From a virus: 40,346 nt of DNA. A program made the position numbers and the translations under genes. The stretch lies in UHGV virus genome UHGV-0260710; one strand, 5' to 3'. The first letter of the stretch is position 1; every line of letters starts with the position of its first letter. Below are positions 13,319 through 33,475 of the stretch, piece after piece. The notes under the pieces were generated by a model that saw nothing but the letters and a program-made list of their open reading frames with translations, had not been told where the DNA came from and searched no databases.

Positions 13319-15356
<2,038 letters not shown>

Positions 15357-17055: not shown

Positions 17056-17753
17056 TAGAAGTCGTAATCGCCACCAGAGCCAGAGTCGTCACCACCTTCG
17101 GAACCATCGTCACCGAAGTCATCAGACCCGAAGTCACCATCGGTTGACGCTTTGTAGCCAGTACCAAGGTCTTCATCATCACCCCAGCCACCATCGCCAC
17201 CAGCACCATCACCTTTCCATTCTTTCAGTTCTACCAGAAGGCAGGACTCAAGCTGGAGCTTAACGCTTGCACCAGTCGCAGCGTTCCACTTGAACGGCAG
17301 GACTTTGAACTTGACCTTCAGCTTAGACCCAGCGCCAATATTCGGGACGTCACGGATGAGTTTAGCATCGGTGTCGTAGAACCGTAATACGATAGGCTCG
17401 GACTTGCCGTCTTTCAGGTAAGACGCAAAGCATTTGAACTTCAGGGTAACAGTACCGTCACCATTCTCAATCCACGGCATATCGCCTTCACGAGGCTCGA
17501 TAGGCTTCTTGCCACGCTGAACCTGAGGTGGGTTCTTCTCGTGGTCTGCGAGTGCTTTCGCATACGCATCGTCGTGAATCTTCTGCAAGACATCAATCAT
17601 CTTACGGACCTTCGGGTCGCTCAGGTCGAACGTCAGGTTAACCTTATGCTCACCACGCTCGTTAAACTTGGTGTCTGCTTTGTTCAGCCATGCGTAGGGT
17701 TCAACGATACCAGCTACCGGAGTGGTGAAAGTCTTCAGTTGCTCTTTAGCCAT
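17055..17753 (-). CDS. gp2.5: Single-stranded DNA-binding protein (gp2.5)
   Basis: 232 aa, same length as T7 gp2.5; acidic C-terminal tail ending DF; shared blocks (EPYA, NPP.V.RGKKP..P.EGDMP, NGDGT.T.KFKC.AS, GSKLKVK, W....GASVKLQLES..LVEL). Confidence 0.9.
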   Translation of the reverse strand: MAKEQLKTFTTPVAGIVEPYAWLNKADTKFNERGEHKVNLTFDLSDPKVRKMIDVLQKIHDDAYAKALADHEKNPPQVQRGKKPIEPREGDMPWIENGDGTVTLKFKCFASYLKDGKSEPIVLRFYDTDAKLIRDVPNIGAGSKLKVKFKVLPFKWNAATGASVKLQLESCLLVELKEWKGDGAGGDGGWGDDEDLGTGYKASTDGDFGSDDFGDDGSEGGDDSGSGGDYDF

Positions 17754-17792
17754 TGGTGTAAATCTCCTAATTTAAAGTTACGAACTGGACGT

Positions 17793-17815
17793 CTGTCCTA
17801 CAGTGATAGTTTAGG
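17793..17815 (-). promoter_or_regulatory. Variant phage promoter (TAAACTATCACTGTAGGACAGA; -3 G)
   Basis: Family motif overlapping the gene 2 3' end, upstream of SSB gene (T7 has phi2.5). Confidence 0.55.
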
Positions 17816-18032
17816 TCTCAGGACGGATTCGTCCTACCACAAACCCAGCGTCCTCATACTCTTGGGACTTTAGGGTAGCCTCTTCAAGAGACTTTGCGTA
17901 CACCGGAACCTCGAAGGACTGAATGCGTCCCTCAAGCTCCACGATGTATTTTCTTTCTTCAAGTCTCATAGCCCTTTCTCCTTCCACATATGGTACATGG
18001 ACAGGTAGTCCACATCCCCGGTTGAGACCCAC
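17811..18032 (-). CDS. gp2: Host RNA polymerase inhibitor gp2-like (true start possibly the internal Met at 17969)
   Basis: C-terminal half aligns to T7 gp2 (SFEVP.YA..L.EA......Y...GF.V.R.RP). Confidence 0.7.
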
Positions 18033-18047
18033 TGTCTAAAACACCAA

Positions 18048-18365
18048 CTACTTGGAGTCATAGCACTTACCTTTATGCAGGTCGAACAGCTCCTGATAGA
18101 ATGCTGCTTTGTTCAGGTCCTTCTCCATAGTAGCCAGCTCTGACTTCTTACCAGCCCGGAGGCGATACTTCAGGACGTTACCCATGCAGAACCCACGGAA
18201 CTCGCTGACAGTCATGGACCGAGCGATAATCTCAATGGATTCCACGCCGTCAAAGACCTGATAGTGGGAAGGCTTGATCACACTGTCGTCTATATTAGGC
18301 GGGTTGATACAGTTACAGACTCCAGCTCCGTTCCATATCGTACAGCCGGGAGAATGGTTAGTCAT
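18048..18365 (-). CDS. gp1.7: gp1.7-like protein (corresponds to the C-terminal half of T7 nucleotide kinase gp1.7)
   Basis: 105 aa; KPSHYQVFDGVESIEIIARSMTVSEFRGFCMGNVLKYRLRAGKKSELATMEKDLNKAAFYQELFDLHKGKCY nearly collinear with the T7 gp1.7 C-terminus. Confidence 0.75.
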   Translation of the reverse strand: MTNHSPGCTIWNGAGVCNCINPPNIDDSVIKPSHYQVFDGVESIEIIARSMTVSEFRGFCMGNVLKYRLRAGKKSELATMEKDLNKAAFYQELFDLHKGKCYDSK

Positions 18366-18618
18366 TGACCGCCTCCTTCACGAACTCAACGAACAGACGA
18401 ACGCGAGGCCACTTTGTGTAGACCACAGGTACGTTGGTCTCACGCTTCTGGCGAGCCTCTTCAGCTTTGCCCGGAGTAATCAGAGCGAAGACTGTAGGTG
18501 ACAGCTTAACTGCCTTCCCGAAGTAGCTCAGCTTCTCGTTACGCTTAATACAAGCGAACGGGTTGTTGGACAGGTGGAAGGTATTGGTATAACGGTTGAA
18601 CATTAAGTTCTTAGACAT
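18358..18618 (-). CDS. Hypothetical early/middle protein (86 aa), gene 1.5/1.6 position
   Basis: ORF directly downstream of a phage promoter; overlaps gp1.7 start by 8 nt. Confidence 0.5.
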   Translation of the reverse strand: MSKNLMFNRYTNTFHLSNNPFACIKRNEKLSYFGKAVKLSPTVFALITPGKAEEARQKRETNVPVVYTKWPRVRLFVEFVKEAVND

Positions 18619-18642
18619 AGAGTCTCCTTAGATTGTTGATGG

Positions 18643-18665
18643 TTGTCCTATAGTGATAGCTTAGG
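18643..18665 (-). promoter_or_regulatory. Phage RNAP promoter (TAAGCTATCACTATAGGACAAC)
   Basis: Family motif immediately downstream of the early terminator. Confidence 0.65.
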
Positions 18666-18699
18666 GTCAGGCTGGTGGCTCAGACGATAGCTTGCTAGC

Positions 18700-18738
18700 A
18701 CAAAGCAAAGAAACCCAGCAGTCATAAGACCACTGGGT
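18700..18738 (-). terminator. Candidate early (TE-like) intrinsic terminator
   Basis: Minus strand ACCCAGTGGTC-TTAT-GACTGCTGGGT (10-bp stem with two G-U pairs) followed by TTTCTTTGCTTTG; placed right after the HNH stop, as T7 TE follows the early region. Confidence 0.5.
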
Positions 18739-18741
18739 TGT

Positions 18742-19224
18742 TTATAATGAGTCTCTTAAGGCTACCGCCTCGGCTATGGTCTTGGCATATAGGACCACTC
18801 GCTCTCCGTTGACCACCTTCTTGATACAGTAAAGCTCTCGACCTTTCACCTTTGAGATGTGACGTTCTCCGGTAGTGTTGGTGGACATCTGGCCTTTGTT
18901 CTGGTTGTTCTCTGAGTGAGACACCAGTCGCAGGTTGGACATCCTGTTATTAGAAGGGTCCCGGTCAATGTGGTCAATCTCCATGCCGTCTGGTATGGGA
19001 CCATATGTCATCTCCCATATTACCCTATGAACCTGTAGATGCTTGCGGCCCCACGGTGTCCTGACGTTTATCGTCCAATAGCCGGACTTCTTCTTACTGC
19101 CTACCTTTCGTCCAGAGTGGAGGGCCAGCCCGGAGGCCGACCTTTCGTCCACTTTAAATCTTGACTGTAGGATTATCCTCAGTTCCACGCCACTGGTCGA
19201 ACGAGGGATGTCGCAATGAGCCAT
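18742..19224 (-). CDS. HNH homing-endonuclease-like protein (extra relative to T7)
   Basis: 160 aa; [41 protein letters not shown] core; 5' end overlaps the ligase 3' end (an in-frame GTG at 19150-19152 is an alternative start). Confidence 0.8.
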   Translation of the reverse strand: MAHCDIPRSTSGVELRIILQSRFKVDERSASGLALHSGRKVGSKKKSGYWTINVRTPWGRKHLQVHRVIWEMTYGPIPDGMEIDHIDRDPSNNRMSNLRLVSHSENNQNKGQMSTNTTGERHISKVKGRELYCIKKVVNGERVVLYAKTIAEAVALRDSL

Positions 19225-20176
19225 CTGGTGTCTCCTCCATGTAGGTAATCTGACAAGCCCACCCCTTGTAGTAGTCAGGGTCTGACTTAACGTTCTCCGT
19301 GAACTCGGACATAAGGGCGCGACTAATGTTAGTTGCGGAGACCTCCATCCCGTTCTCTAGCATAACGTCAAAGCCGATGACCATACCTTCGTTGGCTAGA
19401 CCTTCTGTTCCCCACACCGGGCGAACAACGTGACCATCTGCCTCTTCACTTGGTTTCATCTTCCACATACCAGACTTCTTACCGCGCTTCCAGCGCCCCA
19501 GTGGGTCTTTAACCACCAGACCCTCGTGCCCATCTGCTCGCTTCTCCTCGTACAAATCACGAAGAGACTCAAGGCTAAACACTGTATGGCTCTCAGAGAG
19601 AACCCATTCGATTTCCGGGAAGTATTTCTGGAGGAGAGGGACGATAGCTTCGGCCTTCAGGCGGGTTACGCTATGGATAGGACCTTCGGCTTTCGGGTCA
19701 GCAATGGTTGTCATGTCGATGACGCCGTAAACCACAACCTGAAGTCTTGACCGTGCGGCCCAGAACGGGACCTTCTTACCACGTCCCGGATAGCACTCAG
19801 CGAACTCTTCGTTGCTAGGCTTCAGCCACTTCGTTCTGATGAGACCCGATGATGTGTTGAAGTCAACGCCTTTGACCATGACCTCGCCGTCAATCATCAA
19901 GCCCACACCTTCGTAGCCAGCTTGACGTAGGAACCATCGCCAGTCAGCTTGGGTCCACGCATTCCCTAACTCAGAGTTCATCCACTCCAAGGCCGGAAGA
20001 GGTTTAGACTCACGGCTCAGCCAGTAGGTCTCACCTTCACGCAGGACCGGGAGGTTTAGCCGCACACCATCGTACTTCACTTCAGCTTCCAGAGACCCGG
20101 CTGCTTCCAGTGCCTTCTTAATGCCAGACTCAGAGTAATCTACAGCGCGGTGCGGGTTGGTTTTAATAGTTGTCAT
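19154..20176 (-). CDS. gp1.3: ATP-dependent DNA ligase (gp1.3); start taken at MTTIKTNP (ORF also open from 20191)
   Basis: Alignable to T7 ligase (IKTNP..AV...ES.IKKAL, AE.KYDGVR.N, YWLSR.SK..PALE, MVKGVDFNT.SGL.RTKW, YFPEIEW, RA.GHEGL.VKDP, KRGKKSG.WKMKP, GT.GLANEG.VIGF.V.LE.G, ATNISRALM.EFTE, GWACQI.YMEETPDGSLRHPSF...RGTEDNP). Confidence 0.9.
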   Translation of the reverse strand: MTTIKTNPHRAVDYSESGIKKALEAAGSLEAEVKYDGVRLNLPVLREGETYWLSRESKPLPALEWMNSELGNAWTQADWRWFLRQAGYEGVGLMIDGEVMVKGVDFNTSSGLIRTKWLKPSNEEFAECYPGRGKKVPFWAARSRLQVVVYGVIDMTTIADPKAEGPIHSVTRLKAEAIVPLLQKYFPEIEWVLSESHTVFSLESLRDLYEEKRADGHEGLVVKDPLGRWKRGKKSGMWKMKPSEEADGHVVRPVWGTEGLANEGMVIGFDVMLENGMEVSATNISRALMSEFTENVKSDPDYYKGWACQITYMEETPDGSLRHPSFDQWRGTEDNPTVKI

Positions 20177-20439
20177 TATGCTTTGCTCCATGTGTCGAGT
20201 TGGTCAGCGAGACCGTTGAGGCAGTCTGTTGCGGTATTATACAGCACGTCTTCATCGTAGTGCGCGAAGGTCTCAAGCGCTAGGATGTTACCAGCTCGGT
20301 CCTCCACCCTTAGTTGCATGCACTCTTGGCGTGACACATGGTCTTGAAACTCCCGAGATATAACAGCGAAGTCTAACTGATAAAGCCTGTTACACGCTGC
20401 TCTGAAAGCGTTGAGGTTGCCACTATAAAGTCTGCTCAT
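20176..20439 (-). CDS. gp1.2: gp1.2-like protein (host dGTPase inhibitor family)
   Basis: 87 aa; collinear with T7 gp1.2 (RLYSGNL.AF.AA.N.L.QLD.AVI, R.EDR.GN, F.H.DEDVL.N..TD.LN...DQL..W). Confidence 0.85.
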   Translation of the reverse strand: MSRLYSGNLNAFRAACNRLYQLDFAVISREFQDHVSRQECMQLRVEDRAGNILALETFAHYDEDVLYNTATDCLNGLADQLDTWSKA

Positions 20440-20443
20440 TTGG

Positions 20444-20623
20444 TTATGCTCCTACGAAGTATTTCTCTTGGTTGATCATAGAGTCTTTACCTTCAGCATT
20501 ACGGAAAGCTCCTTTGACACCACCGCCACGCTTAGTCTTGTTCAGCTTGCGGCCCTTCGGGATGTAGCCTTCAGTCTGCTGACGTTCACGGATGCGCTCG
20601 AAGTTGATAGTGTTCTGATACAT
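20444..20623 (-). CDS. gp1.1: gp1.1-like small basic protein (59 aa)
   Basis: Hand translation MYQNTINFERIRERQQTEGYIPKGRKLNKTKRGGGVKGAFRNAEGKDSMINQEKYFVGA; KGRKLNKTKR matches T7 gp1.1; below the ORF-table length cutoff. Confidence 0.6.
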   Translation of the reverse strand: MYQNTINFERIRERQQTEGYIPKGRKLNKTKRGGGVKGAFRNAEGKDSMINQEKYFVGA

Positions 20624-20693
20624 GGTGTAGCTCCTGGTTGAGTGAGTTAGGGTTAATCATGAAGGCCACGACTTTGAGTCATGACCTTGAGTC

Positions 20694-20716
20694 TAATCCT
20701 ATAGTGATAGTTTAGG
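20694..20716 (-). promoter_or_regulatory. Phage RNAP promoter (TAAACTATCACTATAGGATTAG)
   Basis: Family motif upstream of gene 1.1, as T7 phi1.1A/B. Confidence 0.7.
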
Positions 20717-20790
20717 CTAACCTCTCCTGCGTTGGATTAAAGTGAATACTGCGAGTGCTACCAACCACAGGGCCAGTAACTGTAGGTATG

Positions 20791-20991
20791 TCATTTGGTT
20801 GCCGCCTCTTTAAGGACTTGCTCGTGCGTCTGCTCCACCATCTTAACCAGCAACTTGAATGGGACGTTAAGCTGCTTTGACATCTCGGTAGGGATGACAG
20901 TGGTCTTCACCAGACCCTTGCCGTTGTGTTCTGTTACGGTCACGATTTGGGTCCCACCCTTAACGCCAGTCTGCTTGTGTGCAAATTCCAT
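20791..20991 (-). CDS. Hypothetical protein (66 aa) after RNAP
   Basis: ORF in the conserved orientation; no recognised motif. Confidence 0.45.
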   Translation of the reverse strand: MEFAHKQTGVKGGTQIVTVTEHNGKGLVKTTVIPTEMSKQLNVPFKLLVKMVEQTHEQVLKEAATK

Positions 20992-21001
20992 AACTCTCTC
21001 C

Positions 21002-21232
21002 TTATCTAATTGTAGGGAATGACGGATACTGAGTGCGCTCGTCTTTCATCCACGCGTTAAGAACTTCATCAATCGAAGCTATAAGGTTGTACTCGTTAGG
21101 TTGAATCCACCCAGTCACACCCGACTGTAATCTGTCTCGGAGAATGATTAAATCCTTATAAGTCAGCTCTACATGGCAACGTCCCGACCCATCGTTGAAT
21201 GCCTTGTTGTGTGCTACAAGTTTCATTGACAT
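21002..21232 (-). CDS. Hypothetical protein (76 aa) after RNAP
   Basis: ORF starts 15 nt after RNAP stop; no recognised motif. Confidence 0.45.
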   Translation of the reverse strand: MSMKLVAHNKAFNDGSGRCHVELTYKDLIILRDRLQSGVTGWIQPNEYNLIASIDEVLNAWMKDERTQYPSFPTIR

Positions 21233-21247
21233 ATACTTCTCCTGCTG

Positions 21248-23929
21248 TTAAGCGAATGCAAAGTCTGAAGACAGGATGTCTTCGATATTCAGTTTGCCTT
21301 TCTTCGGAAGCTCAGGCAGCTTGTCGCGCTGGCTCTCGTGAAGCTGGTATTCGAACTGCTCGTAGAAGTCAAGCAGCACGTCGTTGTCGCGGTATGTCTC
21401 GACCATCGTCTCACGGACACCACGGAACAGATACTCAGCGTCAGCCGGGATGGTCCCGAAGCTATCATGAATCACTGCGAACGACATCACGCCATATTTG
21501 CGGTGAGTGTGGACTACAGTCTTGCGTAGGTGGCTACCATCTTGTGAGTGGACGAAGTTCGGGCTAATGCCTGACTCCTGCTTGTGCTTGTCCAACTCTT
21601 TCTTCGTGCCTTTATTGACGGTAGGCTGAAGGTTGAATGACCCTAAGAACATCAGGTTCAGACGAGTGGTATCCTTCTTGCGGTATTCCTGCCAGACCGG
21701 GAAACCATCAGGTGTTACCCAGTGTACAGGAAGGCAAGGCTTCAGGATTTCCCCGGTCTTTTTGTCCTTCACTTCAGCAGCCAGCAGCTTGGCAGCACCC
21801 TGAAGCCACTTCATCGCGTCAACAGCAGCAACTACGGTCACACTCACAGCTTCCCAAATCATCTTAGCCATGAAGCGAGACGCTTGGCTTGGCTCGGTGA
21901 ACATAGCGCCAGACCCTGAGTCAATCGCTGGAATCACGATGTCCTCGTACACTTGGTCTGCGAAGCCGTACTCTTTCGACCCATAGGCCAGAGTCATGAC
22001 TGAACGCTTAGTGACCTTTCGTGACATACCGTAGGTCAGCCACTGGCGGGCCAGCTCTCGTGTCCCCAGCTTGATACGTTCGGTAATCTCACCCGTTTTC
22101 TTGTCCTCGTGAGTTACCATCTCGTTGTCCGTGCCGTTAACCAGCAGGACTTTAAGCTCTTCCTCAATGCGGTCAGACACTATGCGGTAGATGTCTTGTA
22201 CCTTACCGGAAGGCGTCAGGTTTACTGCATGTCCACCGATGTGGTCACGAAGCATCGCGCTAAAGTGCTGAATCCCAGAGCAGGACCCATCGAATGCTAT
22301 CGGCAGCGAGCAGGAGTAAGACAATCCGTGATGCATTACGCCAGCATACTCGAAGCAGAACGCTAGGAAGCAGAACGGAGAGTCTAACTTACCCCACCAC
22401 TCAATGCTGTCCATCGGTGCCTTAGCGGTAGCCATGATGTTGTCGTGGTTATCTTCCACCCACTTGATGCGCTCCTCGAAGGTTACTTTATCAATACCCG
22501 CACAGTTTGCACCGTGGACCTTCAGCCATTTGAAACCATCAGCACCAATAGGCTTACCGACTGCCAGAGTCAGGAGACCCTTTTGCATGTCGTTACCCTG
22601 AGGGTTGAACATCGGAACAGCGTAGACACGACCGCGCCAGTCCATATTGTACGGGAACCAGATGGCCTTGAACTGAGAGAACTTGTTCGCTTGGTTAACG
22701 ATAAAGCTCAGTGACAATCTACGCGACTGCCGAGCCTTCTCTCGGCGGTAGATACCAGCAGCAGCCTTCTTCCATGCCTTAAGTTCCTCTTCAGTCTCAC
22801 CCGCATAGTCTTCAGGCTTCAGTGGCTCCATCTGAGGGATGTCATCAATAGGCGTGTTGTTCAACTTCTCGACCATGTTCACCACGTCCAGAACCTTCTT
22901 GTTCACTTTCCAAGGTGTATTCTGGATGATGTTAACAGCGTCATATACTTCAGGCATGTACACGTCTTCGTAACGTGCCACCGCAGACTTAGACCCTAAG
23001 CGAATCAGTGGTAGTGGTCTGCGTCCTTTGGCCCAGTACCCACCTCCTACGACACCAGTCCACGGCTTAGGTGGAACGACGCAAGGCTGGTAGACTGGAG
23101 CGATACCCGCAAGGCTGAAGCCTCGTTGCGCCATCTTCTTGACCCAGAAGTCTGACAGGTGGACCATCTCGACGTCAGCCGCTGCATTGCCAGCACCGTA
23201 ACGCTTAAGCTCGACCAGTTGTGTTGACTGGATGATAATCTCAAGCATCTTGATTCCAACGTGGACAGCCTCGGTTGGACTCCAAGTCCCCCACGCATCT
23301 TCCAGTTGGCCTTGCTCAAGCATGGATGCCTCAACCGCTTGCATGTAGGCTTTCTTGTAGGATGCCCCAGCTCGCTTGTTCAGGTTCTCGGCTATCGCCT
23401 TCTTGAAGTGCTCCTTCTCCTTGTCACGGATGCGACCGAAGCGGATTTCGTCCTCAAGTGTGCGACCTATCGCGGATGCCATCGGTGTAATCGGTATCCC
23501 TTCAGGCTTGACCAGCTTGGAGAGTATGACCTTCAGTATGATTACCGCAGCAGACTCGCAAGAGATACGCAGAGAGCGGTCCTTGACGGCCTTCTCTTCA
23601 GTGCTCAACATGGTGAACGCTACGCTAGGACGAGAGGTTGACAGCTTCCCGTCTGGGCCTTCATGCCACTCCCTGACGGCTTGCGCAATCTTAGGGACCA
23701 GAGTCTGCATCAAAGGCTTGGCGACCTGATTGTCTGCCAGTTCCCCGCGCTCAGTCTGTCGCTCAAGGTTCTTGATGAAACGTCGCTCGCCTTCAGTGTA
23801 TGCCTCATGCTCAAGCTGAAGCTGTTTGACTGCAAGGTCTTGCCCGTAATGGTCAGCCAGCAGGTTAAACGGCTCAATAGCGTTAGACACATCAGAGAAG
23901 TCGTGTTTGTCAATAGAGATGACGCTCAT
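21248..23929 (-). CDS. gp1: Single-subunit DNA-directed RNA polymerase (T7 gene 1 family)
   Basis: 893 aa; extensive collinear identity with T7 RNAP (DHYG, FQPCVVPPKPWTG..GGGYWA.GRRPL, RYEDVYMPEVY, WFPYNMDWRGRVYAV.MFNPQGNDM.KGLLTLA.GKPIG, SPFCFLAFCFEYAGV.HHGLSY.CSLP.AFDGSCSGIQHFSAMLRD, VTKRSVMTLAYGSKE.GF, HKQESGI.PNFVHSQDGSHLRKTVV, IHDSFGTIPADA, ends SDFAFA). Confidence 0.98.
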   Translation of the reverse strand: MSVISIDKHDFSDVSNAIEPFNLLADHYGQDLAVKQLQLEHEAYTEGERRFIKNLERQTERGELADNQVAKPLMQTLVPKIAQAVREWHEGPDGKLSTSRPSVAFTMLSTEEKAVKDRSLRISCESAAVIILKVILSKLVKPEGIPITPMASAIGRTLEDEIRFGRIRDKEKEHFKKAIAENLNKRAGASYKKAYMQAVEASMLEQGQLEDAWGTWSPTEAVHVGIKMLEIIIQSTQLVELKRYGAGNAAADVEMVHLSDFWVKKMAQRGFSLAGIAPVYQPCVVPPKPWTGVVGGGYWAKGRRPLPLIRLGSKSAVARYEDVYMPEVYDAVNIIQNTPWKVNKKVLDVVNMVEKLNNTPIDDIPQMEPLKPEDYAGETEEELKAWKKAAAGIYRREKARQSRRLSLSFIVNQANKFSQFKAIWFPYNMDWRGRVYAVPMFNPQGNDMQKGLLTLAVGKPIGADGFKWLKVHGANCAGIDKVTFEERIKWVEDNHDNIMATAKAPMDSIEWWGKLDSPFCFLAFCFEYAGVMHHGLSYSCSLPIAFDGSCSGIQHFSAMLRDHIGGHAVNLTPSGKVQDIYRIVSDRIEEELKVLLVNGTDNEMVTHEDKKTGEITERIKLGTRELARQWLTYGMSRKVTKRSVMTLAYGSKEYGFADQVYEDIVIPAIDSGSGAMFTEPSQASRFMAKMIWEAVSVTVVAAVDAMKWLQGAAKLLAAEVKDKKTGEILKPCLPVHWVTPDGFPVWQEYRKKDTTRLNLMFLGSFNLQPTVNKGTKKELDKHKQESGISPNFVHSQDGSHLRKTVVHTHRKYGVMSFAVIHDSFGTIPADAEYLFRGVRETMVETYRDNDVLLDFYEQFEYQLHESQRDKLPELPKKGKLNIEDILSSDFAFA

Positions 23930-23997
23930 ACTTAAAGTCCTTGTTATTAGTCTTTCACTTAAAGTCTCTTTGGTCTTTCACTTGGAGTCTTAGACCT

Positions 23998-24020
23998 TGA
24001 GTCCTATAGTGATAGTTAAG
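23998..24020 (-). promoter_or_regulatory. Phage RNAP promoter directly upstream of the RNAP gene (TTAACTATCACTATAGGACTCA; +1 ~24003, 73-nt leader)
   Basis: Family motif between the last small early ORF and the RNAP ATG; leader contains an 11-bp direct repeat AAGTGAAAGAC x2 and an AAGGA RBS. Confidence 0.6.
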
Positions 24021-24026
24021 TCAGAA

Positions 24027-24353
24027 TCACTTGCATATCAATGGGTTAGCGTGAAGATGACTGAAGTCACCATGAGTCGTGTGCTTGACGGTTGACCGTT
24101 GGTCTATCGCCTTCCAGCCTGAGACCAGAAGTTTACCATCTTCGGTGATTGGTTGCCCACCATACGCCAGACACATCAGTTCGGACTTATGGCCCTCAGC
24201 CCGCATACGTCGCTGTAAGAACATGTCACGCTCCTTCTGTTGACGTATGGTGTGGCTTGATGTTCCGTGACGATACCCGGTAACCAGTAGGCTTAACATT
24301 TGCATGTCTGCGTCCATAGAGTGTACCAGATTAATCCCGTATGACTTGTTCAT
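24027..24353 (-). CDS. Hypothetical early protein (108 aa)
   Basis: ORF coupled by ATGA overlap to the upstream 65-aa ORF; occupies the region where T7 has 0.5-0.7; no kinase motifs. Confidence 0.5.
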   Translation of the reverse strand: MNKSYGINLVHSMDADMQMLSLLVTGYRHGTSSHTIRQQKERDMFLQRRMRAEGHKSELMCLAYGGQPITEDGKLLVSGWKAIDQRSTVKHTTHGDFSHLHANPLICK

Positions 24354-24550
24354 TACATTTTGCTCCCAAGTGTTGCTATATCCCAGACGTTCGCTAAGTT
24401 GCGCATGAATCGTCCATTAGGTTGACGTACAGTCCAGCGACCCAGACGTACATAGTTGAATTTGCAGACTTTACGCGCTTTATTTATGTCCCTCATCAGC
24501 ACGTAGGCGATAAGTCCATAGCCTATGACTATCAATAGTGCAAGACTCAT
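24353..24550 (-). CDS. Hypothetical early membrane protein (65 aa, N-terminal TM helix)
   Basis: MSLALLIVIGYGLIAYVLM hydrophobic N-terminus then basic region; ATGA-coupled on both sides. Confidence 0.5.
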   Translation of the reverse strand: MSLALLIVIGYGLIAYVLMRDINKARKVCKFNYVRLGRWTVRQPNGRFMRNLANVWDIATLGSKM

Positions 24551-24636
24551 AATGATTTCCGTTTAATACAGTCGTATATCCCATAGACTATCATCCAGAT
24601 AACTGGCGCTAGGCAGACCCAATATCCCACACTCAT
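24547..24636 (-). CDS. Small hydrophobic peptide (29 aa, MSVGYWVCLAPVIWMIVYGIYDCIKRKSL)
   Basis: AGGAG RBS upstream of ATG at 24634-24636; stop overlaps next start (ATGA); below ORF-table cutoff. Confidence 0.3.
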   Translation of the reverse strand: MSVGYWVCLAPVIWMIVYGIYDCIKRKSL

Positions 24637-24706
24637 AGTTAACTCCTATTAATGCAAGTGGTAATCTTTGAGGCCACCTATCAGTCGATGACCTCTCGTC
24701 TATCAC

Positions 24707-24832
24707 TCAGTACCCACCTGTCAGCGTTATGGTCAGGCTATGGTGATTCGCCACGTAGCAAGCCCCGCGCTTCATCATCTCGTAGCATCCATCGTAGAAC
24801 GCCTGTTCACTGCTATAAGTTATCTGGTACAT
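24707..24832 (-). CDS. Small hypothetical early ORF (41 aa)
   Basis: ATG 7 nt after the stop of the upstream 66-aa ORF; hand translation MYQITYSSEQAFYDGCYEMMKRGACYVANHHSLTITLTGGY. Confidence 0.3.
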   Translation of the reverse strand: MYQITYSSEQAFYDGCYEMMKRGACYVANHHSLTITLTGGY

Positions 24833-24838
24833 TGTTGC

Positions 24839-25039
24839 TTACCCTTGGAATCCTACAGTGTTGGGCCATAGCGTAACGGTTTTACGCTTGGAGGTGATAA
24901 GGTCGGTAAATGATATCCGATATGCTGTGCCCTCAGGTGCTAGTATGTTGCCCACATAGCTCTTGGTAGTTATGCGTATTGGACCATCGCCTACCAGATA
25001 TACGGACTTAAGTCTATCAATTATATCGTTGCGTTTCAT
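24839..25039 (-). CDS. Hypothetical early protein (66 aa)
   Basis: ORF whose ATG overlaps the stop of the upstream 53-aa ORF (ATGA). Confidence 0.45.
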   Translation of the reverse strand: MKRNDIIDRLKSVYLVGDGPIRITTKSYVGNILAPEGTAYRISFTDLITSKRKTVTLWPNTVGFQG

Positions 25040-25197
25040 TGTTGGTTATCCTCAGCGTGCAAGCTGTCGTGTATGCGCTTGCGGCCCTCGTAGACCGCCT
25101 TCAGGTGACGTATAGCCGCATCGTGGTTTAACTGCCCGGTCTTGACCATAATCCGGGCGTTGGTGACGTGGTGCTGGCATAGACCGTAAGTTACCAT
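25036..25197 (-). CDS. Small hypothetical early ORF (53 aa), translationally coupled to Ocr
   Basis: ATG shares the A of the Ocr TGA stop (TGATG); hand translation [53 protein letters not shown]. Confidence 0.35.
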   Translation of the reverse strand: MVTYGLCQHHVTNARIMVKTGQLNHDAAIRHLKAVYEGRKRIHDSLHAEDNQQ

Positions 25198-25709
25198 CAC
25201 TCGCAGTCATCCTCAGCAGACGCAGGGTCGAACACTACGTTATCGTTGATGTCCTCGACCTTCAGGTGGCGACCTATCGCATAGTGATCTTTGGCACATG
25301 CAGTAGCGACATCAAGTGATACAGCTTGCTCAACGAATAGGCCTGTTTTAGCGTCTACTACCCAGTATTCTCCCTCCTCGTAGCAGCGCTCTTCAGGCTC
25401 GAACCAGACCACATCAGAGCTATTAGACACATCGTTATACAGTGCCTCATAAATGCGAGCTTGTAGGATGCGCGTTACGTCCTTGGTATCAGGCATCAGC
25501 CCAGAGTCTTCGAACTCATGGTCAATACCATCAGCAGCCATCACCGTGAAAATCTCGTGGTAATAGTGCGGAACCATATTGTCTACGACTTCATGTAGCG
25601 CATCGTAATAATCATCGCCTTCAGCTATTTCGTCGTACTGAATGCGCTCGTTAAATGCTTCAACGGTTGCAGCCAGCAGCTCATAGTATGCGTTAGCGTT
25701 ACGTTCCAT
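25197..25709 (-). CDS. ocr: Ocr-like anti-restriction protein (gene 0.3) with C-terminal extension
   Basis: 170 aa; core [36 protein letters not shown] matches T7 Ocr (117 aa); about 55 extra C-terminal residues. Confidence 0.85.
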
Positions 25710-25924
25710 AATTATATCCTCTCAAAGTTGTTTGTGTATGTTAGTGACTATCAGTCAGGACCCTGAGCCGCTCAAGTCAAGCCCGTCTCGCGGTAGACTC
25801 AAGGTCCTGTAGTTAATCACTATCGGCGCACATTAAGAGTTTATCCAGATTGTTAAAGAGCATTCCCTTCAGTCAGAGGACTTCAGGTAGACCATTTCAG
25901 TGTTGGTCGTCACCGTTGTGTCGA

Positions 25925-25962
25925 TGTGGTACAGCTTACATCTTATCGTCACTACTTGTCAA
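25925..25962 (-). promoter_or_regulatory. Candidate host sigma70 early promoter (A2/A3-like): TTGACA-18nt-TAAGCT
   Basis: -35 TTGACA at 25957-25962; flanking sequence resembles T7 A2/A3 (AAGTAGACAGCCTGATAAGTC..CGAAAAACAGG upstream; GTACCACAT...CCAACACTGAAA downstream), from memory. Confidence 0.4.
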
Positions 25963-26067
25963 CTGCTTTCTGTCATCTGCCTGTTTTTCGTATGACTTAT
26001 CAGGCTGTCTACTTAACCGGGATGACCCGGCGTCTTCACTATCCGGTTATTGCCGTGTCGTGTTGAC

Positions 26068-26103
26068 GGAAGCTATTAAGCCATAGTCTAGACCTATAGT
26101 CAA
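26068..26103 (-). promoter_or_regulatory. Candidate host sigma70 early promoter (A1-like): AT-rich UP region, TTGACT-17nt-CTTAAT
   Basis: -35 TTGACT at 26098-26103 with 17-bp spacer; first promoter-like element downstream of the end-repeat arrays. Confidence 0.4.
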
Positions 26104-26224
26104 TAGGTAATTTGAAATAATATTGATTGAGCTATCGTCGGCCCCATGGTGTAAGAGGATATAGTCTTTGACTAACATGTCTTAGACTTTAAGTCTATAT
26201 CCTTGTGTCTATTAACCGTTGGTC

Positions 26225-26480
26225 TCTGACTGTAGGTGTTGGTGTCTTATGGTTGAGACTGTAGGTTGTTAGACTGTAGGTTGTTAGAACTGTGGTTGTG
26301 ACTTATGGTTAGTGAGACTGTAGGCTGTAGGCTGATGGTTGTGACTTAGGGTCTGATACAGATAGAGACTCAGAGGCAGACCCATAGTCCCAACCTATCG
26401 TCCTTCCCTAAGCCATAGCCACAACCTATCGTTGACCTAACGTCTTGACCATCGGTCCAACCTTATGATAGACTGGGGGT
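26225..26480. repeat. Arrays of short degenerate repeats characteristic of T7-group genome ends
   Basis: 26225-26355 reiterates (G)ACTGTAGG(T/C)TGT / CTTATGG / CTTAGGG units (CCTACAG-type on minus strand); 26380-26475 carries CCATAG / CCTATCG / CCTAAG-type units in the opposite orientation; non-coding. Confidence 0.6.
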
Positions 26481-27117
26481 AGGGCCTTTGGTCTGGACTG
26501 AAAGAGGGCCTATGGGGAGACTTGAGGTTCTTGAACTGTGAGATGTGGTCTCAAACTTTTGGTCCAAAACTCATCGAAGACTGTAGGACACAGCCACTGT
26601 AGGTCAAGGACCGTAGGTCAGGCGACACTAGGATAGACCAATAAGTAGGATGACCCTAAGTGAGCTTCTCTTAAGGTGTTACCTAAAGTCCTTGACTACA
26701 GTAGCTAAGGTCAGTAGAGTAGCGTCAGCTATGAACTGACCTTAGGTCTTCCGCTCATGAATCGTTACCATGATTGCATTAATTGCACTGAGAGACCAGA
26801 GAGCATACGAGAGTCTCGACCCACCCGACCCACTGACTTCCAGCAGTAACGCCAGAAGCAAGTAGAACAGCAGCAAGAAACCTGTATGTAGCTCGATTGG
26901 TCGCCAGAGCTTTAAGTACAGCTTTGGTCTTTGCCATATGCTACATACCTCCTGTATCTATGGTCGGTGACTATCTGTATTGGAGGGATTATGATTAATA
27001 TCACCCTCCTTCCATCGGTGCAAGCCTTAGGTAAGAACTCGGAGTCTGCCTCCTAAGGTCTTGCATAAAGTCTGCATATGTATATTCACTACAGTAATAC
27101 TATAAGTAACCGGGGGT

Positions 27118-27140
27118 CTTCCCTATAGTGATAGTTAAGT
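27118..27140 (-). promoter_or_regulatory. Phage RNAP promoter near the right genome end (phiOR-like), TTAACTATCACTATAGGGAAGACC
   Basis: Family motif downstream of the last gene, reading toward the genome end. Confidence 0.65.
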
Positions 27141-27263
27141 CCAAACTCCTTGTAAAACAGTAGGTTAGACTGGTAGTCACGCATGGTAACTACCTGAGTT
27201 TTTATTCACATATAGCGACATAGTATTCACCATGAAGCTCCCTTCCCTTGGTATTCCTCCAGT

Positions 27264-27612
27264 CTATTGCATCCTGTAAGCTATCGGTAGCATATCTATA
27301 GGTAACACCGTCCTTCGTCTGGCTAGTCTTCCACTTACCTGAACACCTCTTAATACTGTGGGCCAGCACCTCATGTCCTGACTCTTTCCTCTTCTTACAG
27401 CATTAACCGAGTTCTGAGACTTTGTGGCAAGCCGTAGGTTTTCTCTACGATTGTTCAACTTGTTCCTGTCAATATGGTCAACAACCATTCCATCAGGCAC
27501 TGGTCCGTAGAACATCTCGTACACTAAGATGTGCACAAAATGCTCATGGACCTTGTAGTATTTACCGACCAGACCCGACTATACAGCCGGGAACGCTATC
27601 GTCGTACTTCAT
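27264..27612 (-). pseudogene. HNH endonuclease paralog split by a frameshift (remnant or requires recoding)
   Basis: GTG-initiated 90-aa ORF (27264-27536) holds the HNH core HILVYEMFYGPVPDGMVVDHIDRNKLNNRRENLRLA; 15 codons in another frame upstream (MKYDDSVPGCIVGSGR, with TAGGAGGATAA-ATG RBS) plus the open HNH frame (..GKYYKV..) align to the N-termini of the intact paralogs (..[13 protein letters not shown]..); coordinates +/-1. Confidence 0.45.
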
Positions 27613-27623
27613 TTATCCTCCTA

Positions 27624-29390
27624 TTAGTGGAACGTAATGTATGACCCTAGTCCCAGCTCGTCGTCCGTATCGTGAGTTACCCGGACCCCATTGTCCCAGA
27701 ACTCAGTGTGGATGGACTCGAAGCCTTTCCGTGGGTTCTCCATCTGTTCCTCCAGCCACTCCTCAGTGACTTCACGTTCGCCCTTGTTGGCATCCTTAGC
27801 CATAGACTCAACGAAGAACTGTACACCGATAGCCAGCGCATCAAGTCGGTCATCGTGTGCCAAGGCGCCACGTTCACGAGAGATACGTGTCATCTGGTAG
27901 AAGAGAGAGTAGATAGGGTTACGAACACCATCCTTATCAGAGGCCGACTGGTAGTCTTGGACGATAGCAGCAGCGTTAACGATAAGTCGGTGAGACCCCA
28001 TGATAGGCTCCAGAACGTCACAGATGCGTAGTTCTTTCTGCCCCTTACTCTTCACTTCAGTTACAGCCGCAGGATGTATACGGGCCGCTACAGGCTTGAA
28101 TAGCTCAAGGTACATACCATCACCGAAGTTACCCTCAATGACGTATTCGTTGACCTTCCACTTACGACCAATCTTAGCCAGTGCTTCAAGCGTAGAGTCT
28201 TCATAACCACCACGCATGCCGCCAACTTCCATAGCGAAGATGTAGCCGTTGAGCTGGTACAGTACCGCATATCCAGTTTCATCCTTACCACGACCACTAG
28301 GGTCAATGACCAGAATCTTCTGGGTGTACGAACTGAAGGCAGAACCTACAGTCTGATACGTGTGGTATGAGTCTCCCATGAGTCCAACGTTAGGAACGTC
28401 CTCACGCTTGTTCTGAGGGTTTGGCAGCCATTGGTAGACCATTGGGCTGGACGCTGGGTCCAAGTCTGCTACGATAAGGTCACGGAGCTTCAGAGGGTAC
28501 TTCTCGGCATCACTCAGGTTCGGGTTAAGCATGAACTGTAGAGCGAAGCCAGCTTTACCGTAGGACAGCTCACGTTCCTTCAGGTCAGTATCGTCGAATC
28601 GAACTTCATCGGTCGGACGCCAGTAGTAGGCCTCAGGGTCCTCTTCAAGCTCTGCCTGAAGCATCGGTGCCAGACGGTAGCCGTAAGACTGCCAGTCCTT
28701 CTTATCACGTGGATAACGAGCAGGCCAGATAGTAGTGGTGTACCCACGGCCTTCCAGCTCACGATACAAGGTCATCTCGTTCTGAGGAGTACCCAGATAG
28801 ATGATTGTACCTCCCGGCTTCAGGATAGCGTCGAACTCTTTCACAAGCTCTGATAGACGGTCTCGTGCAGCCTGAGTCGCTGAGTTGTTCGGAACCTCCA
28901 CGTCATCGGCAATCAGGATGTCAGCACGACTACCAGTCAACTGACCAGTGATACCAACGGACTTAACCGAAGGTGAGTGGTCTGGCTTGGCGGGTCCAAC
29001 GTCAAAACTGATAACCGCATCTCGCTGTCCCTGCTTAGGTTTGAGTTCCTGAAGCTGAGGCATGAGGTCGATGATTCGCTTGATGAAGATGGAGTTAGCA
29101 TCGGCTCGTTCCTTTGATGCCGACACAATCATGAACTTCAAGTCTGGGTTGTTCCATAGCTTCCAGACCACAAAGCCACAGGTCAGAAACGACTTGCCAA
29201 TACCACGGAAAGCCTGAAGGATGAAGCGGCGATTATCCCCAGCAGCCAGCTTCTTACACATATCTATCTGGCAGCGGGTTGGAACCGGAAGGCTTAGCGC
29301 TTTCCAGAGAACGAAGATGAAGAACACGAAGTCGTCCTGCATCCTTTGGGTCATTTCTGCCTGTCTTTCAGCTGGTGTTTTCTTAGACAT
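27624..29390 (-). CDS. gp19: Terminase large subunit (gp19)
   Basis: 588 aa; near-collinear with T7 gp19 ([124 protein letters not shown]). Confidence 0.95.
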
Positions 29391-29823
29391 AGAGTCCCTC
29401 CAACATTAGGTCCCGGACAGCGATAGCCTCCTCTAAAGTGGGACGTGTTGTGCGCATACGGACTCCCTTACGCATAACCTCGATGGCGTAGCCGTTCTGG
29501 TGGAACGATACGTTCTTAACTCCAGTCTTTGAGTCAGAATGACCTGAGGTGTTGCAGGAGTTCGCGCTTGAAGTAACTAGCCGGAGGTTGTCCAGCCTGT
29601 TGTTAGTTCGGCAACGGTCGATGTGATCAATCTCCATGCCTTCTGGTATGGGACCGTTGGTTAGCTCCCAGATTACCCGATGAGCCAGCAGGAGTCCATG
29701 ACGTCTAGTTCCTACCTGATAATACCCGTGGTTTCCAACACACCCAACGTCCTTACCTGAACGAAGTGACTTCAGGCCAGACTTACTGGACTCATCATAA
29801 GTATACGAATCACTGAGCATCAT
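29383..29823 (-). CDS. HNH homing-endonuclease-like protein overlapping the terminase start
   Basis: 146 aa; [41 protein letters not shown]; 3' end overlaps TerL ATG by 8 nt; absent at this position in T7. Confidence 0.85.
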
Positions 29824-30263
29824 TTCTCCTTATCTTGCTGCAAGGCTCTCACAGTATCCTGAAGGGCCTTAATCCACTTGTCCCCTTTCAGTCCGATGGA
29901 GATAAGACGTTTAGCATCTCGTTCGTCAAGTTCGGCGTAACCATCAATGATGCATCGACCGTCACTTTGCGTGGTTCCACTCGTTGGTTTGACTCGGATG
30001 CGCAACCGCTTATTGTCAGACTGAAGGTCAGCAATAATCCTATCAGTACTGCCTTCCAGCGAGGACATTTCGTCCTGAAACCGTTTGGACACTTTGTTGA
30101 CTTCAGCTTGGACAGCAAGCCTTGTATCCTCCGATGCCTTAAGATTCGAGGTGTATTCTGCATTGACCTTAGCCTCCCACTTATTGTTAGCGGTGTGGTA
30201 GCCCCCAGCAAACATCACTGCTGCAAGTAACCACGGAGCCGCTCTCTTTAAAAATTCGAGCAT
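29820..30263 (-). CDS. gp18.5: Inner-membrane spanin (Rz-like, gp18.5)
   Basis: 147 aa; N-terminal TM (WLLAAVMFAGGY); collinear with T7 gp18.5 (MLEFL....PW.LA, GSTDRII.DL.SDNKRLR.RVK.T, DERDAKR, W..ALQDT.R.LQ). Confidence 0.85.
   Translation of the reverse strand: MLEFLKRAAPWLLAAVMFAGGYHTANNKWEAKVNAEYTSNLKASEDTRLAVQAEVNKVSKRFQDEMSSLEGSTDRIIADLQSDNKRLRIRVKPTSGTTQSDGRCIIDGYAELDERDAKRLISIGLKGDKWIKALQDTVRALQQDKEK
29888..30163 (-). CDS. gp18.7: Outer-membrane lipoprotein spanin (Rz1-like, gp18.7) embedded in gp18.5 in another frame
   Basis: Signal peptide RWKAVLIGLLLTFSLTISGC with lipobox, then ASES...SLMV.PNLT.EMLNV as in T7 gp18.7; start assigned to the internal Met (ORF open from 30211). Confidence 0.7.
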   Translation of the reverse strand: MQNTPRILRHRRIQGLLSKLKSTKCPNGFRTKCPRWKAVLIGLLLTFSLTISGCASESNQRVEPRKVTVDASLMVTPNLTNEMLNVLSPSD

Positions 30264-30973: not shown

Positions 30974-33475
30974 TTAAGAGTTTAAAATAGAAGAATATTT
31001 AGTAACAACATTACCAGATACAGGTGTCGAATCTATAGCAGGTCTTGCTGTTGCCCTGATATTTAGCCCAATAACCCCTGAATATGCTACTGACTGCGTT
31101 CCCGCATAACGGTAACATGCAAGAGTTCCTCCGGACTTATGAGTCCACTCAACGTTTCCATTTGCTTGAAACAGAAAGATATTAGCAGATGTTGTAGTTG
31201 TCATGTCTCCTGTGGAAACTACATTTACTGGCTCAGTGGTGGCAACTTTGATCAAGTGATACCCGGCAGGGCTTGTTACACCTCCACTCAACGTCAGATT
31301 TACATTCGTTTTACGCAATGCAATCAAACTACCATAAGCATTGCACACAATACCTCCTAAGCCACGAATTGTGGCGGATGGTAACTCTGTATCTTCCGTT
31401 AAATTTATACTTCCTGCGTTGGTATAAACGTCGTTTATTTCAAGCATTCTGCAAATTTTGGCAGCATGTTTCAAAGATTTTAGACCACGCGCTCCATTGA
31501 AACCCCAATTTTCATCGTTACCGTTAACTGGGTCGATGTATAACGTTGAAGGTGAAACGCCTGTAACTTCATTAACTAAATCCCATTTCCCAAGTTTTCC
31601 GTACTGGAACTGGCCATTGTTAGGATTTCGTATGTTGACTACAGCTCCAGAGTTTATGCCGTCAAGGAACCTGTAACCGTTGAACATCATGTAACCGTGA
31701 ATATCTACAACACTGCGACCCTTAACGCAGTTCTTGACGTAGACCACTGAACTGTTTGCTATACTTCCGTCTTGAATGAAAAGACCATTTAGACGGATGT
31801 CAGCGTCTGAGTTGATAATATAGAAACAATGTTTCGCCTTACCACCCGTGGCTTCCATGTGACAACCGTCAACCTTAAGCCCACCGTTACTGTTGGCATC
31901 CCCTTGGTTAACATACATGAATGAGCAGGTTTCTGTTACACAATACCTGAACTGCACAGAACTGCGTCCGTACTGTGTAATTGCGACATCGCCGGTTTCG
32001 TCAAAATCTTCCGGTTTAAAAATTACCTGTTCTGAATAAGTTGAATCCTGTCCAAGTCGAGCAATGTAAGCGTTTTTCACCTCAGAGCCGCCGTTTTGCT
32101 CGTAGAAAACAGCACCTTGAGTCTTGTATAGAATCTTAGGTGTTGTGTGAACACTGCCCCAAGCAATACTGTGAAGCATACCAACCTTTGGAATTCTGGC
32201 GGTTGATGCTGTGCTTCCTGGTGTGTTCTCACCAATGCTTAGATTGCTAGTTGTGCATCCTGCGGCACCTAACCAACGAAGCCCTAACAATGTTCCTGGC
32301 TTTGTGATAATAGACAGGTTTTCAATATCGATATGGCGAGCGCCTGTTCTTACTTCACCACTATCAATTTGTGAGCCTGTTGGCAAAAACATTGGGTCAG
32401 AGTTTAATGACCATGTTGACCCAGATTTAAGATAGACATACGTACTAACAGCAGCCATGTTACCTTCACCAGAAGGCGGGTTGAAGTAAAAACCTTGCTG
32501 TACGATTCGGCGGAAATAAGAGTAACCGGGCTGGACAATCTGCACGCCGGGCGGGATAAAGATTGTCTCTGTGTGCATGTACAGGCCGCGCAAAACAACA
32601 CGCTTTGCTACTACATCCAAGTGTGGGTTAAGTTCTGTTGCTGTGTCTGTAAATGAAATCGGCATGTCGTTGATGTATTTAAACATAGCCTTTAATGCCT
32701 GTGTATCGTCAGAAATCCCATCACCAATAGCTCCGAATTGCTCAGGGGTTACATCATTTAATACATCTGCTAATTTACCCGATGGATTAATTCCGATTAA
32801 TTCAGCCCCGTCATTATTCATTAGGCTTCCTCTAAGTGATGCATCACCAACACTAATCCACGCACCAAGACCAACACCACCAGCAGTTTCAGGAGTTGAA
32901 CCCTCTGGAACGTTCTTTGGAAGCGTACCATCCCAGCGGTAATACTCACCATCCTCTTCCCATAGCAGGACCTCGTTCCATGTTGTAACGTTGAAGCCTT
33001 TCTCGAAGGAGCGACGGGTAATATAGCCAACTAGACCAGCTGCCTTGATACGCTCAGCGATTCGGCGTGCTTCGTCCTCGCTATCCTTAGCGTTGCCAGC
33101 AGAGCTACCAGCAGCATCGGCATATTCCTTCGCTAAGTCAACAGTTTGGTCTCGACCTTCTTCTGCAATATGGATAGCCTGAAGCTCTGCATTGGTCAGG
33201 TCACTAGCTGTCAACACTGAACCATTCCTGAAGTCTACCACTAAGTCAGTTCCAGTCTGACGGTGAATACGAACGATGTCGAAACCTGATTGGTCAACCA
33301 ACATCTCAATAATCGTTGGATTAAGGAATCGGTAATCTCGACCGACTTCCAGTACACGGTTCAGGGTAGGGTTAGAGCTATTCACCAGCGTAACAACAAC
33401 AAACGTTCTGGCTAGGTAGTCGAACTCAATCCTGTACTGAGTGTTTCCTGAAGGGAATTGTGTAATCGTGGACAT
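30974..33475 (-). CDS. gp17: Tail fibre / tail spike (gp17): T7-like N-terminal adaptor plus C-terminal pectate-lyase-like (beta-helix) depolymerase-type domain
   Basis: 833 aa; first ~150 aa align to the T7 gp17 N-terminus (EFDYLAR.FVVVTL, DYRF, DGS.L.A.DL..A..Q..H.AEE.RD.T.D); rest unrelated to T7, contains [19 protein letters not shown], typical of pectate-lyase-3 tailspikes; 3' half visibly AT-rich. Confidence 0.85.

Follow-up and report, generated by a model that had tools for sequence, protein, structure and literature searches.

How did one phage genome come to carry five genes for HNH-type endonucleases, two of them flanking the gene for the large terminase subunit (terL)? The question is raised by UHGV virus genome UHGV-0260710, a stretch of 40,346 nucleotides (nt) that was analysed over its full length and is called the window below. 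An initial annotation had described three of the five genes as close paralogs and had proposed that they spread recently within this genome. Comparison of the window with related phages leads to a different answer. With a probability of roughly 85%, the sequences point to five independently acquired, free-standing, I-HmuI-like HNH_3 homing endonuclease genes, four of them intact and one recently inactivated. These genes are separate, old functional lineages, which circulate within the genus Kayfunavirus and have been gained and lost repeatedly.

Five HNH_3 genes and their predicted products

All five open reading frames (ORFs) match the Pfam family HNH_3 (PF13392) at 66.9-81 bits (E 1e-18 to 5e-23), well above the curated cut-off of 24.8 bits, so the earlier count of five HNH-type genes stands. 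Like all long ORFs of the window, they lie on the minus strand. HNH-A (18742-19224; 81 bits, E 4.6e-23) is intact and free-standing, between the stop codon of the DNA ligase gene and an early terminator. HNH-B (29383-29823; 73.6 bits, E 9.5e-21), also intact and free-standing, lies between the gene for an Rz-like spanin and terL. The HNH-C pseudogene (27202-27612; 78 bits in the ORF at 27264-27536) is found between the terL stop codon and a phage promoter. HNH-3.8 (14991-15356; 66.9 bits, E 1.2e-18) is intact, as is HNH-'5.3' (10561-10842; 67 bits, E 1.1e-18), which follows the DNA polymerase stop codon. The catalytic columns H43, D61-H62, N74 and N86 are invariant across an alignment of 38 sequences, HNH-A, HNH-B and HNH-3.8 among them. 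The core of HNH-5.3 is a Cys-rich, zinc-type, DH...N...H variant, and in HNH-C the HNH motif itself is intact within a broken ORF. There is no sixth HNH locus in the window by tblastn with seven further T7 and Kayfunavirus nucleases, among them the 7.7, 7.7B and 7.7C proteins of Kayfunavirus CR44b, the 7.7 and 2.8 proteins of T7 and the HNH protein of Salmonella phage KE14, all hits falling at the five known loci; the genome thus lacks a 7.7-type gene, as had been noted.

Among proteins of solved structure, I-HmuI (PDB 1U3E) is the only significant relative of HNH-A by phmmer (E 1.5e-5). An AlphaFold2 model of HNH-A residues 24-160 has a predicted local distance difference test (pLDDT) value of 91.9, and a Foldseek search with it places 1u3e_M on top (probability 1.00, E 1.1e-3), followed by the His-Me finger enzyme I-PpoI. 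The global TM-score of the model to I-HmuI is just 0.46 because the arrangement of the domains differs. The C-terminal 40 residues of the model form three strands and a helix. No Pfam match to AP2 (PF00847) is found in the C-terminal segments of the window proteins, even at E≤10; 14 of 59 homologs carry PF00847 along with PF13392, and AP2 structures appear as weak matches (E 0.65-1.8) in the Foldseek search. The window proteins may be of the 'HNH-AP2' type. As judged from these similarities, all five are I-HmuI-like HNH_3 proteins and predicted nucleases.

Two of the genes had been named after T7 counterparts, on the understanding that the HNH-like genes of T7 are 3.8, 5.3 and 7.7. This is correct for 3.8 and 7.7; T7 gp5.3 matches PF11645, a PD-(D/E)XK family, and the HNH_3 genes of T7 are 2.8, 3.8 and 7.7. 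HNH-3.8 is an ortholog of T7 gp3.8 both by sequence (54.6% amino acid (aa) identity over 119 aa) and by position, the T7 match overlapping 4A. HNH-5.3 is not a homolog of T7 gp5.3: there is no blastp match between them at E≤10, and they share only their position after the DNA polymerase gene.

Separate lineages at five sites

The window belongs to a well-sampled group. A megablast search with 14 kb returned about 346 phage records at ≥90% nt identity, the best at 92.4% over 87%, and the best matches are all Kayfunavirus (K1F-like Studiervirinae); the window is thus a Kayfunavirus (K1F-like, T7 supergroup) genome. These ~346 close records serve as the denominator for the distributions given below. 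The phage collection searched holds 50,697 records. Eleven relatives were fetched, one of the 11 Kayfunavirus genomes being covered only in part, and each insertion junction was aligned.

Within the window, the three supposed close paralogs are far apart. Identity between HNH-A and HNH-B is 43% over 145 aa; HNH-A and HNH-C reach 58%, confined to the 45-aa catalytic core; and HNH-B and HNH-C share 33-45% over 66-96 aa. The similarity of HNH-C to HNH-B (33% over 96 aa) is about the same as its similarity to the 3.8 protein (35.6% over 118 aa). The orthologs of the same three genes in other Kayfunavirus phages are 88-98% identical in aa sequence and, apart from the copy in Citrobacter phage NS1, they share the site of the window gene (the copy in Kayfunavirus CR8 was compared by sequence alone). 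Since every copy is closer to the orthologs of other phages than to its companions in the genome, the genes represent separate lineages and not an intragenomic burst.

The other part of the earlier proposal, in which these are mobile insertions of sporadic occurrence instead of fixed components, is borne out. When compared with HNH-free relatives, as had been suggested, all five cassettes are precise presence/absence indels whose breakpoints can be defined at the level of the base. Carriers are a minority of the ~350 close records: 2 with a full-length copy for HNH-A, 40-42 for HNH-B, 5 for HNH-C, 5 for HNH-3.8 and ~103 for HNH-5.3. The slots that the cassettes occupy adjoin conserved essential genes, namely ligase/early terminator, promoter/primase, DNA polymerase/gene 5.5, Rz/terL and terL/late promoter. 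Between carriers, synonymous divergence (dS) is 0.56-0.75 for HNH-A, 0.10-0.34 for HNH-B, 0.06-0.16 for HNH-C, 0.07-0.09 for HNH-3.8 and 0.78 for HNH-5.3. The ratio of nonsynonymous to synonymous divergence (dN/dS) across the five genes is 0.04-0.22, and the four intact genes are under purifying selection.

HNH-B and the start of terL

At the site upstream of terL (27624-29390), window positions 29343-29825 stand in place of 53 bp of the empty-site genomes, in which homology is lost between window positions 29826 and 29342 (blastn). HNH-B begins at the ribosome-binding site (RBS; ...AAGGAG...) that serves terL in empty genomes, and it overlaps the Rz stop codon. Its own end overlaps the new terL start (ATGTCTAA) by 8 bp, in agreement with the overlap noted earlier, and the Shine-Dalgarno (SD) sequence of terL, GGAGGG, sits inside HNH-B. 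The first ~16 codons of terL (29343-29390, minus strand) cannot be aligned by blastn with the alleles of HNH-free genomes, in which terL starts with LSKDLVARQALMTARM... or with other alleles; the 3' half of terL is 95-97% identical in nt sequence to that of relatives. This 5' allele is linked to the HNH gene: it is present in 4/4 carriers (the window, RDN8.1, 22664UKE3-2 and TH16) and in 0/6 non-carriers. The stretch at 29343-29390 is therefore a likely candidate for the region of HNH-B cleavage and immunity, the linked 5' variants presumably conferring the immunity.

Full-length copies of HNH-B at 92-97% nt identity are found in 40 phage records, including 22664UKE3-2, RDN8.1, CR8 (where the gene is called '3.8A') and NS1. 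Amino acid identity to the RDN8.1, 22664UKE3-2 and NS1 proteins is 96.6-97.9%, and dN/dS is 0.05-0.09. In CR44b and TH16 a different gene, 3.8A, which is 65% identical to HNH-B, fills the same slot. The ortholog in front of terL in Hafnia phage Ca has been called a homing endonuclease gene and was seen to be deleted spontaneously (PMC8861465).

The copy in NS1 is ectopic. It is 97.2% identical in nt sequence to HNH-B and lies between the tail-fibre gene (gene 17) and the holin gene (35127-35801). There it retains ~45 bp of terL 5' sequence of the HNH-linked type, and the new site has been directly duplicated on either side of it over ~90 bp (35127-35212 and 35701-35801). The copy thus directly records an ectopic move out of the terL site, a rare visible footprint of a homing gene reaching a new place. 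Among the five genes, transposition to a non-homologous site is seen for HNH-B only.

HNH-3.8 and the start of the primase gene

HNH-3.8 is the first ORF after a phage promoter (15409-15425) and overlaps the primase gene by 26 bp. Window positions 15004-15353 stand in place of 13 bp, and HNH-3.8 starts at the exact RBS and ATG (TTAAGGAGTGACCAATG) that begin the primase gene in empty genomes. The junction alignment places the new primase/helicase start at 14991-15016 (minus strand), with its ATG at 15016 and its SD sequence, AAGGAGG, inside HNH-3.8. As a result, the first ~9 codons of the primase gene are replaced in the window; empty-site genomes have MSYDDQDDESVFLYH. Thus, both HNH-B and HNH-3.8 take over the RBS of the neighbouring gene and supply a new one, so that translational coupling is kept.

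Orthologs of HNH-3.8 at ≥90% aa identity are present in 5 records, including EPr2, BDX03P1 and SH5; of the fetched relatives, BDX03P1 and EPr2 have the gene and the other nine lack it. An HNH gene of phage SH5, 54% identical to T7 gp3.8 and absent from SH4 and Dev2, has been described (PMC4925675), and its protein is 95.9% identical in aa sequence to the window ORF. The slot upstream of the primase gene also has other occupants, a tRNA-Thr(CGT) gene in 22664UKE3-2 (21807-21885) and an unrelated 180-bp ORF in vB_EcoP_F; the window itself has no tRNA gene. Since all three occupants use or duplicate the TTAAGGAGTGACCAATG start region, the primase slot is an insertion hot spot.

HNH-A and the slot after the ligase gene

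HNH-A is the rarest of the five. Among the 50,697 phage records, full-length matches are found only in RDN8.1 (88.8% aa identity) and TH16 (86.9%), with a dN/dS of 0.06-0.07. By junction alignment the gene is absent from the post-ligase site of CR44b and KE14, and blastn finds no copy in five other fetched genomes. The insert is bordered by the ligase stop codon TAA (within 19147-19165) and by an intrinsic terminator hairpin (18712-18739, minus strand), which a terminator scan identifies from AACCCAGTGG...CTGGGTT, a 12-bp stem and a T-rich tail. The hairpin directly follows HNH-A and is conserved in 5/5 aligned genomes, including relatives without HNH-A; its position suggests that it corresponds to TE, the early terminator of T7.

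The start codon of HNH-A is uncertain. In the longest ORF it is the ATG at 19224, preceded by the SD sequence GGAGGA with an 8-nt spacer, and lies within the coding sequence of the ligase gene (gene 1.3 equivalent; 19154-20191, minus strand), which the ORF overlaps by 71 bp (19154-19224) in a different frame. Homology to other HNH proteins starts at about codon 24. A metagenomic ortholog, P0001, starts at an ATG just past the ligase stop codon, where the window has AGG.

What is left when the gene is lost can be seen in CR44b. At ~6485-6520, that genome still has two short pieces of HNH-A, ~20 bp from its 5' end and ~18 bp from its 3' end, which meet at a GGT.GCC microhomology (aligned to window positions 19140-19165 and 18742-18766). 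This remnant is a deletion scar of HNH-A and shows that CR44b had a carrier among its ancestors. In KE14 the slot holds ~25 unrelated bases. The metagenomic protein P0003 (153 aa, from a 505-bp contig and compared as protein) is 49% identical to HNH-A: its first ~25 residues, the ligase-overlapping part, are nearly the same and its last 12 residues (TIAEAVALRDSL) are the same, around a different core. This pattern suggests that one HNH lineage may have been replaced by another within the post-ligase slot.

The neighbourhood is variable in other ways. The 3' third of the ligase gene and the gene 1.6/1.7 region (window positions 17742-19340) are strongly mosaic, with identity ranging from 73% to 95% within a few hundred bases, and in several relatives another 180-bp ORF fills the post-ligase slot (for example, 22664UKE3-2 18161-18340).

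HNH-C, a fresh pseudogene

At the site after terL, window positions 27209-27624 stand in place of 27 bp, extending from the terL stop codon to the region upstream of the promoter at 27120-27136. The gene had been described as frameshifted, and comparison with its intact 417-bp orthologs ('3.8B' of CR44b and the gene of KE14) shows how. It has lost 5 bp (GTCTC, between GTCT repeats, at junction 27575|27574) and a single base in a run of C (27360-27362); in a three-frame translation, the two deletions put the catalytic core in a different frame from either end. With the six bases restored, the product is a 138-aa protein that is 97.8% identical to 3.8B of CR44b; thus, the inactivation is recent. 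HNH-C is found in 5 phage records, CR44b (two entries) and three Salmonella phages. The 5-bp deletion is unlikely to be a sequencing error, although for the 1-bp homopolymer deletion such an error cannot be fully excluded. Programmed frameshifting was considered and rejected: the orthologs are single ORFs, and the window has two separate deletions, one of them between the GTCT repeats.

HNH-5.3 after the DNA polymerase gene

The most widespread gene, HNH-5.3, has orthologs at ≥80% aa identity in 103 records. The insert follows the polymerase stop codon. The last codons of HNH-5.3 (KECH*) together with the next ATG form a 17-nt duplicate (10559-10575) of the junction between the polymerase end and the gene 5.5 start, which restores the downstream RBS. 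For K1F, the 5.3 gene has been suggested to lie in a group I intron (PMC4925675); no intron is needed here, since the polymerase ORF ends with the normal KECH* before the insert.

Homing and its alternatives

How might such genes spread? T7-like phages are known to carry homing endonucleases of the HNH nicking type (PMC3428280). During co-infection of a carrier with a relative that does not have the gene, the enzyme would nick or cut the naive allele of the neighbouring essential gene, and repair by recombination with the carrier genome would then copy in both the nuclease gene and the resistant flanking allele (intronless homing, with marker exclusion). HNH-B would most likely act within the diverged first ~50 bp of terL, and HNH-3.8 within the first ~30 bp of the primase gene. 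This scheme is modelled on the seg and mob genes of the T-even phages, taken as general background, and on I-HmuI-type enzymes and free-standing homing genes of phage (PMC3428280). A further step may be considered for HNH-B and HNH-3.8, although it is put forward only tentatively. These genes might act by 'addiction by start-site capture': loss of the nuclease gene would cripple terL or the primase gene, and the captured codons would double as the immunity allele. If true, this would explain the purifying selection, the perfect linkage of alleles and the small plaques of Hafnia phage Ca described below.

Some observations weigh against homing. The diverged 5' ends of terL and the primase gene could simply be hypervariable; indeed, NS1 and BDX03P1 have further terL 5' alleles without any HNH gene at that position. 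The divergence of each gene between carriers is also about that of its flanks. When nt identity was compared between each gene and its 800-bp flanks in each carrier genome, co-conversion tracts were not clearly detectable; the downstream flank of HNH-3.8 is slightly more similar among carriers, and otherwise the flanks have diverged like the genes. Because identity in the genes shows no clear excess over that in the flanks, recency of transfer cannot be claimed, and vertical descent combined with loss and ordinary recombination could explain much of the distribution. The initial annotation had named, as the pattern that would speak for old, fixed genes, carriage by all relatives together with flank-like divergence; carriage by all is not seen, and the flank-like divergence is.

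The alternative that fares best takes up this last point. The genes might be old, vertically inherited accessory nucleases, used for host DNA degradation or phage exclusion and incapable of propagating themselves, with a patchy distribution that results from loss only. Besides the similar divergence of genes and flanks, the deletion scar in CR44b, the pseudogene in the window and the high dS between carriers of HNH-A fit such a history. Yet it requires dozens of independent precise losses, and it does not account for the HNH-B gene at a non-homologous site in NS1, for the other HNH lineages found in the same slots (3.8A of CR44b and TH16; P0003) or for the HNH-linked alleles of the adjacent essential genes, which homing with immunity predicts. 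Loss alone is thus an unlikely explanation.

Could the two genes that flank terL instead have been domesticated, as packaging factors like HK97 gp74 or as genes needed for terL expression? The terL RBS and start codon do lie inside HNH-B, whose dN/dS of 0.05 denotes strong purifying selection. In addition, in Hafnia phage Ca, small plaques contain mainly genomes in which 397 bp of the ortholog are deleted, and large plaques mainly complete genomes (PMC8861465), an effect that is equally explained by damage of the deletion to terL translation initiation. However, ~88% of the close relatives have no HNH-B and ~99% have no HNH-C, and all have terL; the window's HNH-C is a pseudogene; the proteins belong to the HNH_3/I-HmuI-like group, a subfamily different from that of gp74, and have an additional C-terminal domain; and T7-like phages package their DNA between direct terminal repeats (annotated in CR44b), not at cos sites. 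Domestication is therefore very unlikely.

Finally, the recent duplication of a single HNH gene to three sites in this genome, which would make the copies young paralogs, is ruled out by the identity matrix, even though NS1 shows that HNH-B can move ectopically and though the three proteins do share the block HR(V/I)(I/V)WE..(Y/N)GP(I/V)P(D/E)GM(E/V)(I/V)DHIDR..NNR..NLRL on which the initial annotation had relied, since that block is a generic HNH_3 core, also present in the 3.8 protein, and is no mark of paralogy.

Genome context

The window is a complete, circularly permuted T7-like genome, whose gene order was compared with that of annotated relatives. The genes for RNA polymerase (21248-23929), primase/helicase (13319-15016) and DNA polymerase (10874-13045), all on the minus strand, are ordered as in these relatives. 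A ligase gene is annotated at the homologous position in RDN8.1, CR44b and KE14, and terL, also on the minus strand, at the homologous position in all annotated relatives. The other modules, in order, are portal, capsid, tail, internal core proteins, tail fibre, holin, small terminase and Rz. The phage promoter AACTATCACTATAGGGA is present in 11 copies (≤3 mismatches), compared with 0.07 expected by chance.

Within the tail fibre/tailspike gene (30974-33475), positions 31000-33000 have a GC content of 0.435-0.449 vs ~0.50-0.53 elsewhere, which suggests a horizontally exchanged receptor-binding module. The length of gene 17 differs among annotated relatives.

Comparison with known systems

The five genes are ordinary phage homing endonuclease genes. 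Annotated orthologs of each are already in GenBank, where these genes are labelled HNH homing endonucleases, and Kayfunavirus genomes with multiple HNH genes, such as CR44b, are already on record; thus, the finding matters little beyond annotation. It does have some practical uses. In phylogenies of the genus and in taxonomy based on average nucleotide identity, the HNH indels should be masked together with the diverged terL and primase 5' ends linked to them, and the pairs of empty and occupied sites, defined at base level, are ready substrates for characterising site-specific nicking enzymes. Taken together, the window and its relatives display stages in the life cycle of a homing gene: the predicted active genes, a fresh pseudogene, the scar in CR44b and the jump in NS1.

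The closest enzymes of known type are I-HmuI, I-HmuII, I-BasI, I-TwoI and I-PfoP3I (1U3E; PMC3428280). These share with the window proteins an HNH_3 core of the His-Me finger type at the N-terminus, containing H, DH, N and N; they are likewise encoded by phages, have two domains of which the C-terminal part binds DNA, and are associated with replication genes. They differ in being encoded within introns, whereas the window genes are, from their sequence context, free-standing between genes. The C-termini also differ: I-HmuI has a helical, helix-turn-helix tail, and the window proteins have a short unit of three strands and a helix, which is AP2-like in some homologs.

In their setting, the genes more closely recall the free-standing seg and mob genes of the T-even phages. 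Those genes are also small, intergenic, sporadic and situated beside conserved essential genes, with linked polymorphism in the adjacent gene and with overlap and translational coupling to their neighbours. The seg genes belong to the GIY-YIG family. A title cited in PMC8861465 identifies mobE as an HNH gene. For the T-even genes homing has been shown experimentally; for the window genes it is predicted.

HK97 gp74 resembles the window genes in that an HNH nuclease gene adjoins the large terminase gene. It is a short protein of the PF01844 type and thus of another HNH subfamily and architecture. Conserved co-occurrence with terminase, as expected of a required factor, is not found here, since terL in most relatives has neither HNH-B nor HNH-C beside it; the window genes are dispensable in most relatives, and packaging is of the T7 type, without cos cleavage.

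The nearest counterparts are other Kayfunavirus genomes. In CR8, the '3.8A' gene is 91.8% identical to HNH-B in nt sequence. CR44b carries five annotated HNH genes (7.7, 7.7B, 7.7C, 3.8A and 3.8B), of which 3.8B and 3.8A occupy the same sites as restored HNH-C (97.8% identity) and HNH-B (65%), respectively. Among 11 Kayfunavirus genomes compared (one of them only in part), none has the five-gene combination of the window. The window differs from CR44b, which already has five HNH genes, in having no 7.7-type gene and in adding the rare HNH-A, which is shared with RDN8.1 and TH16 only.

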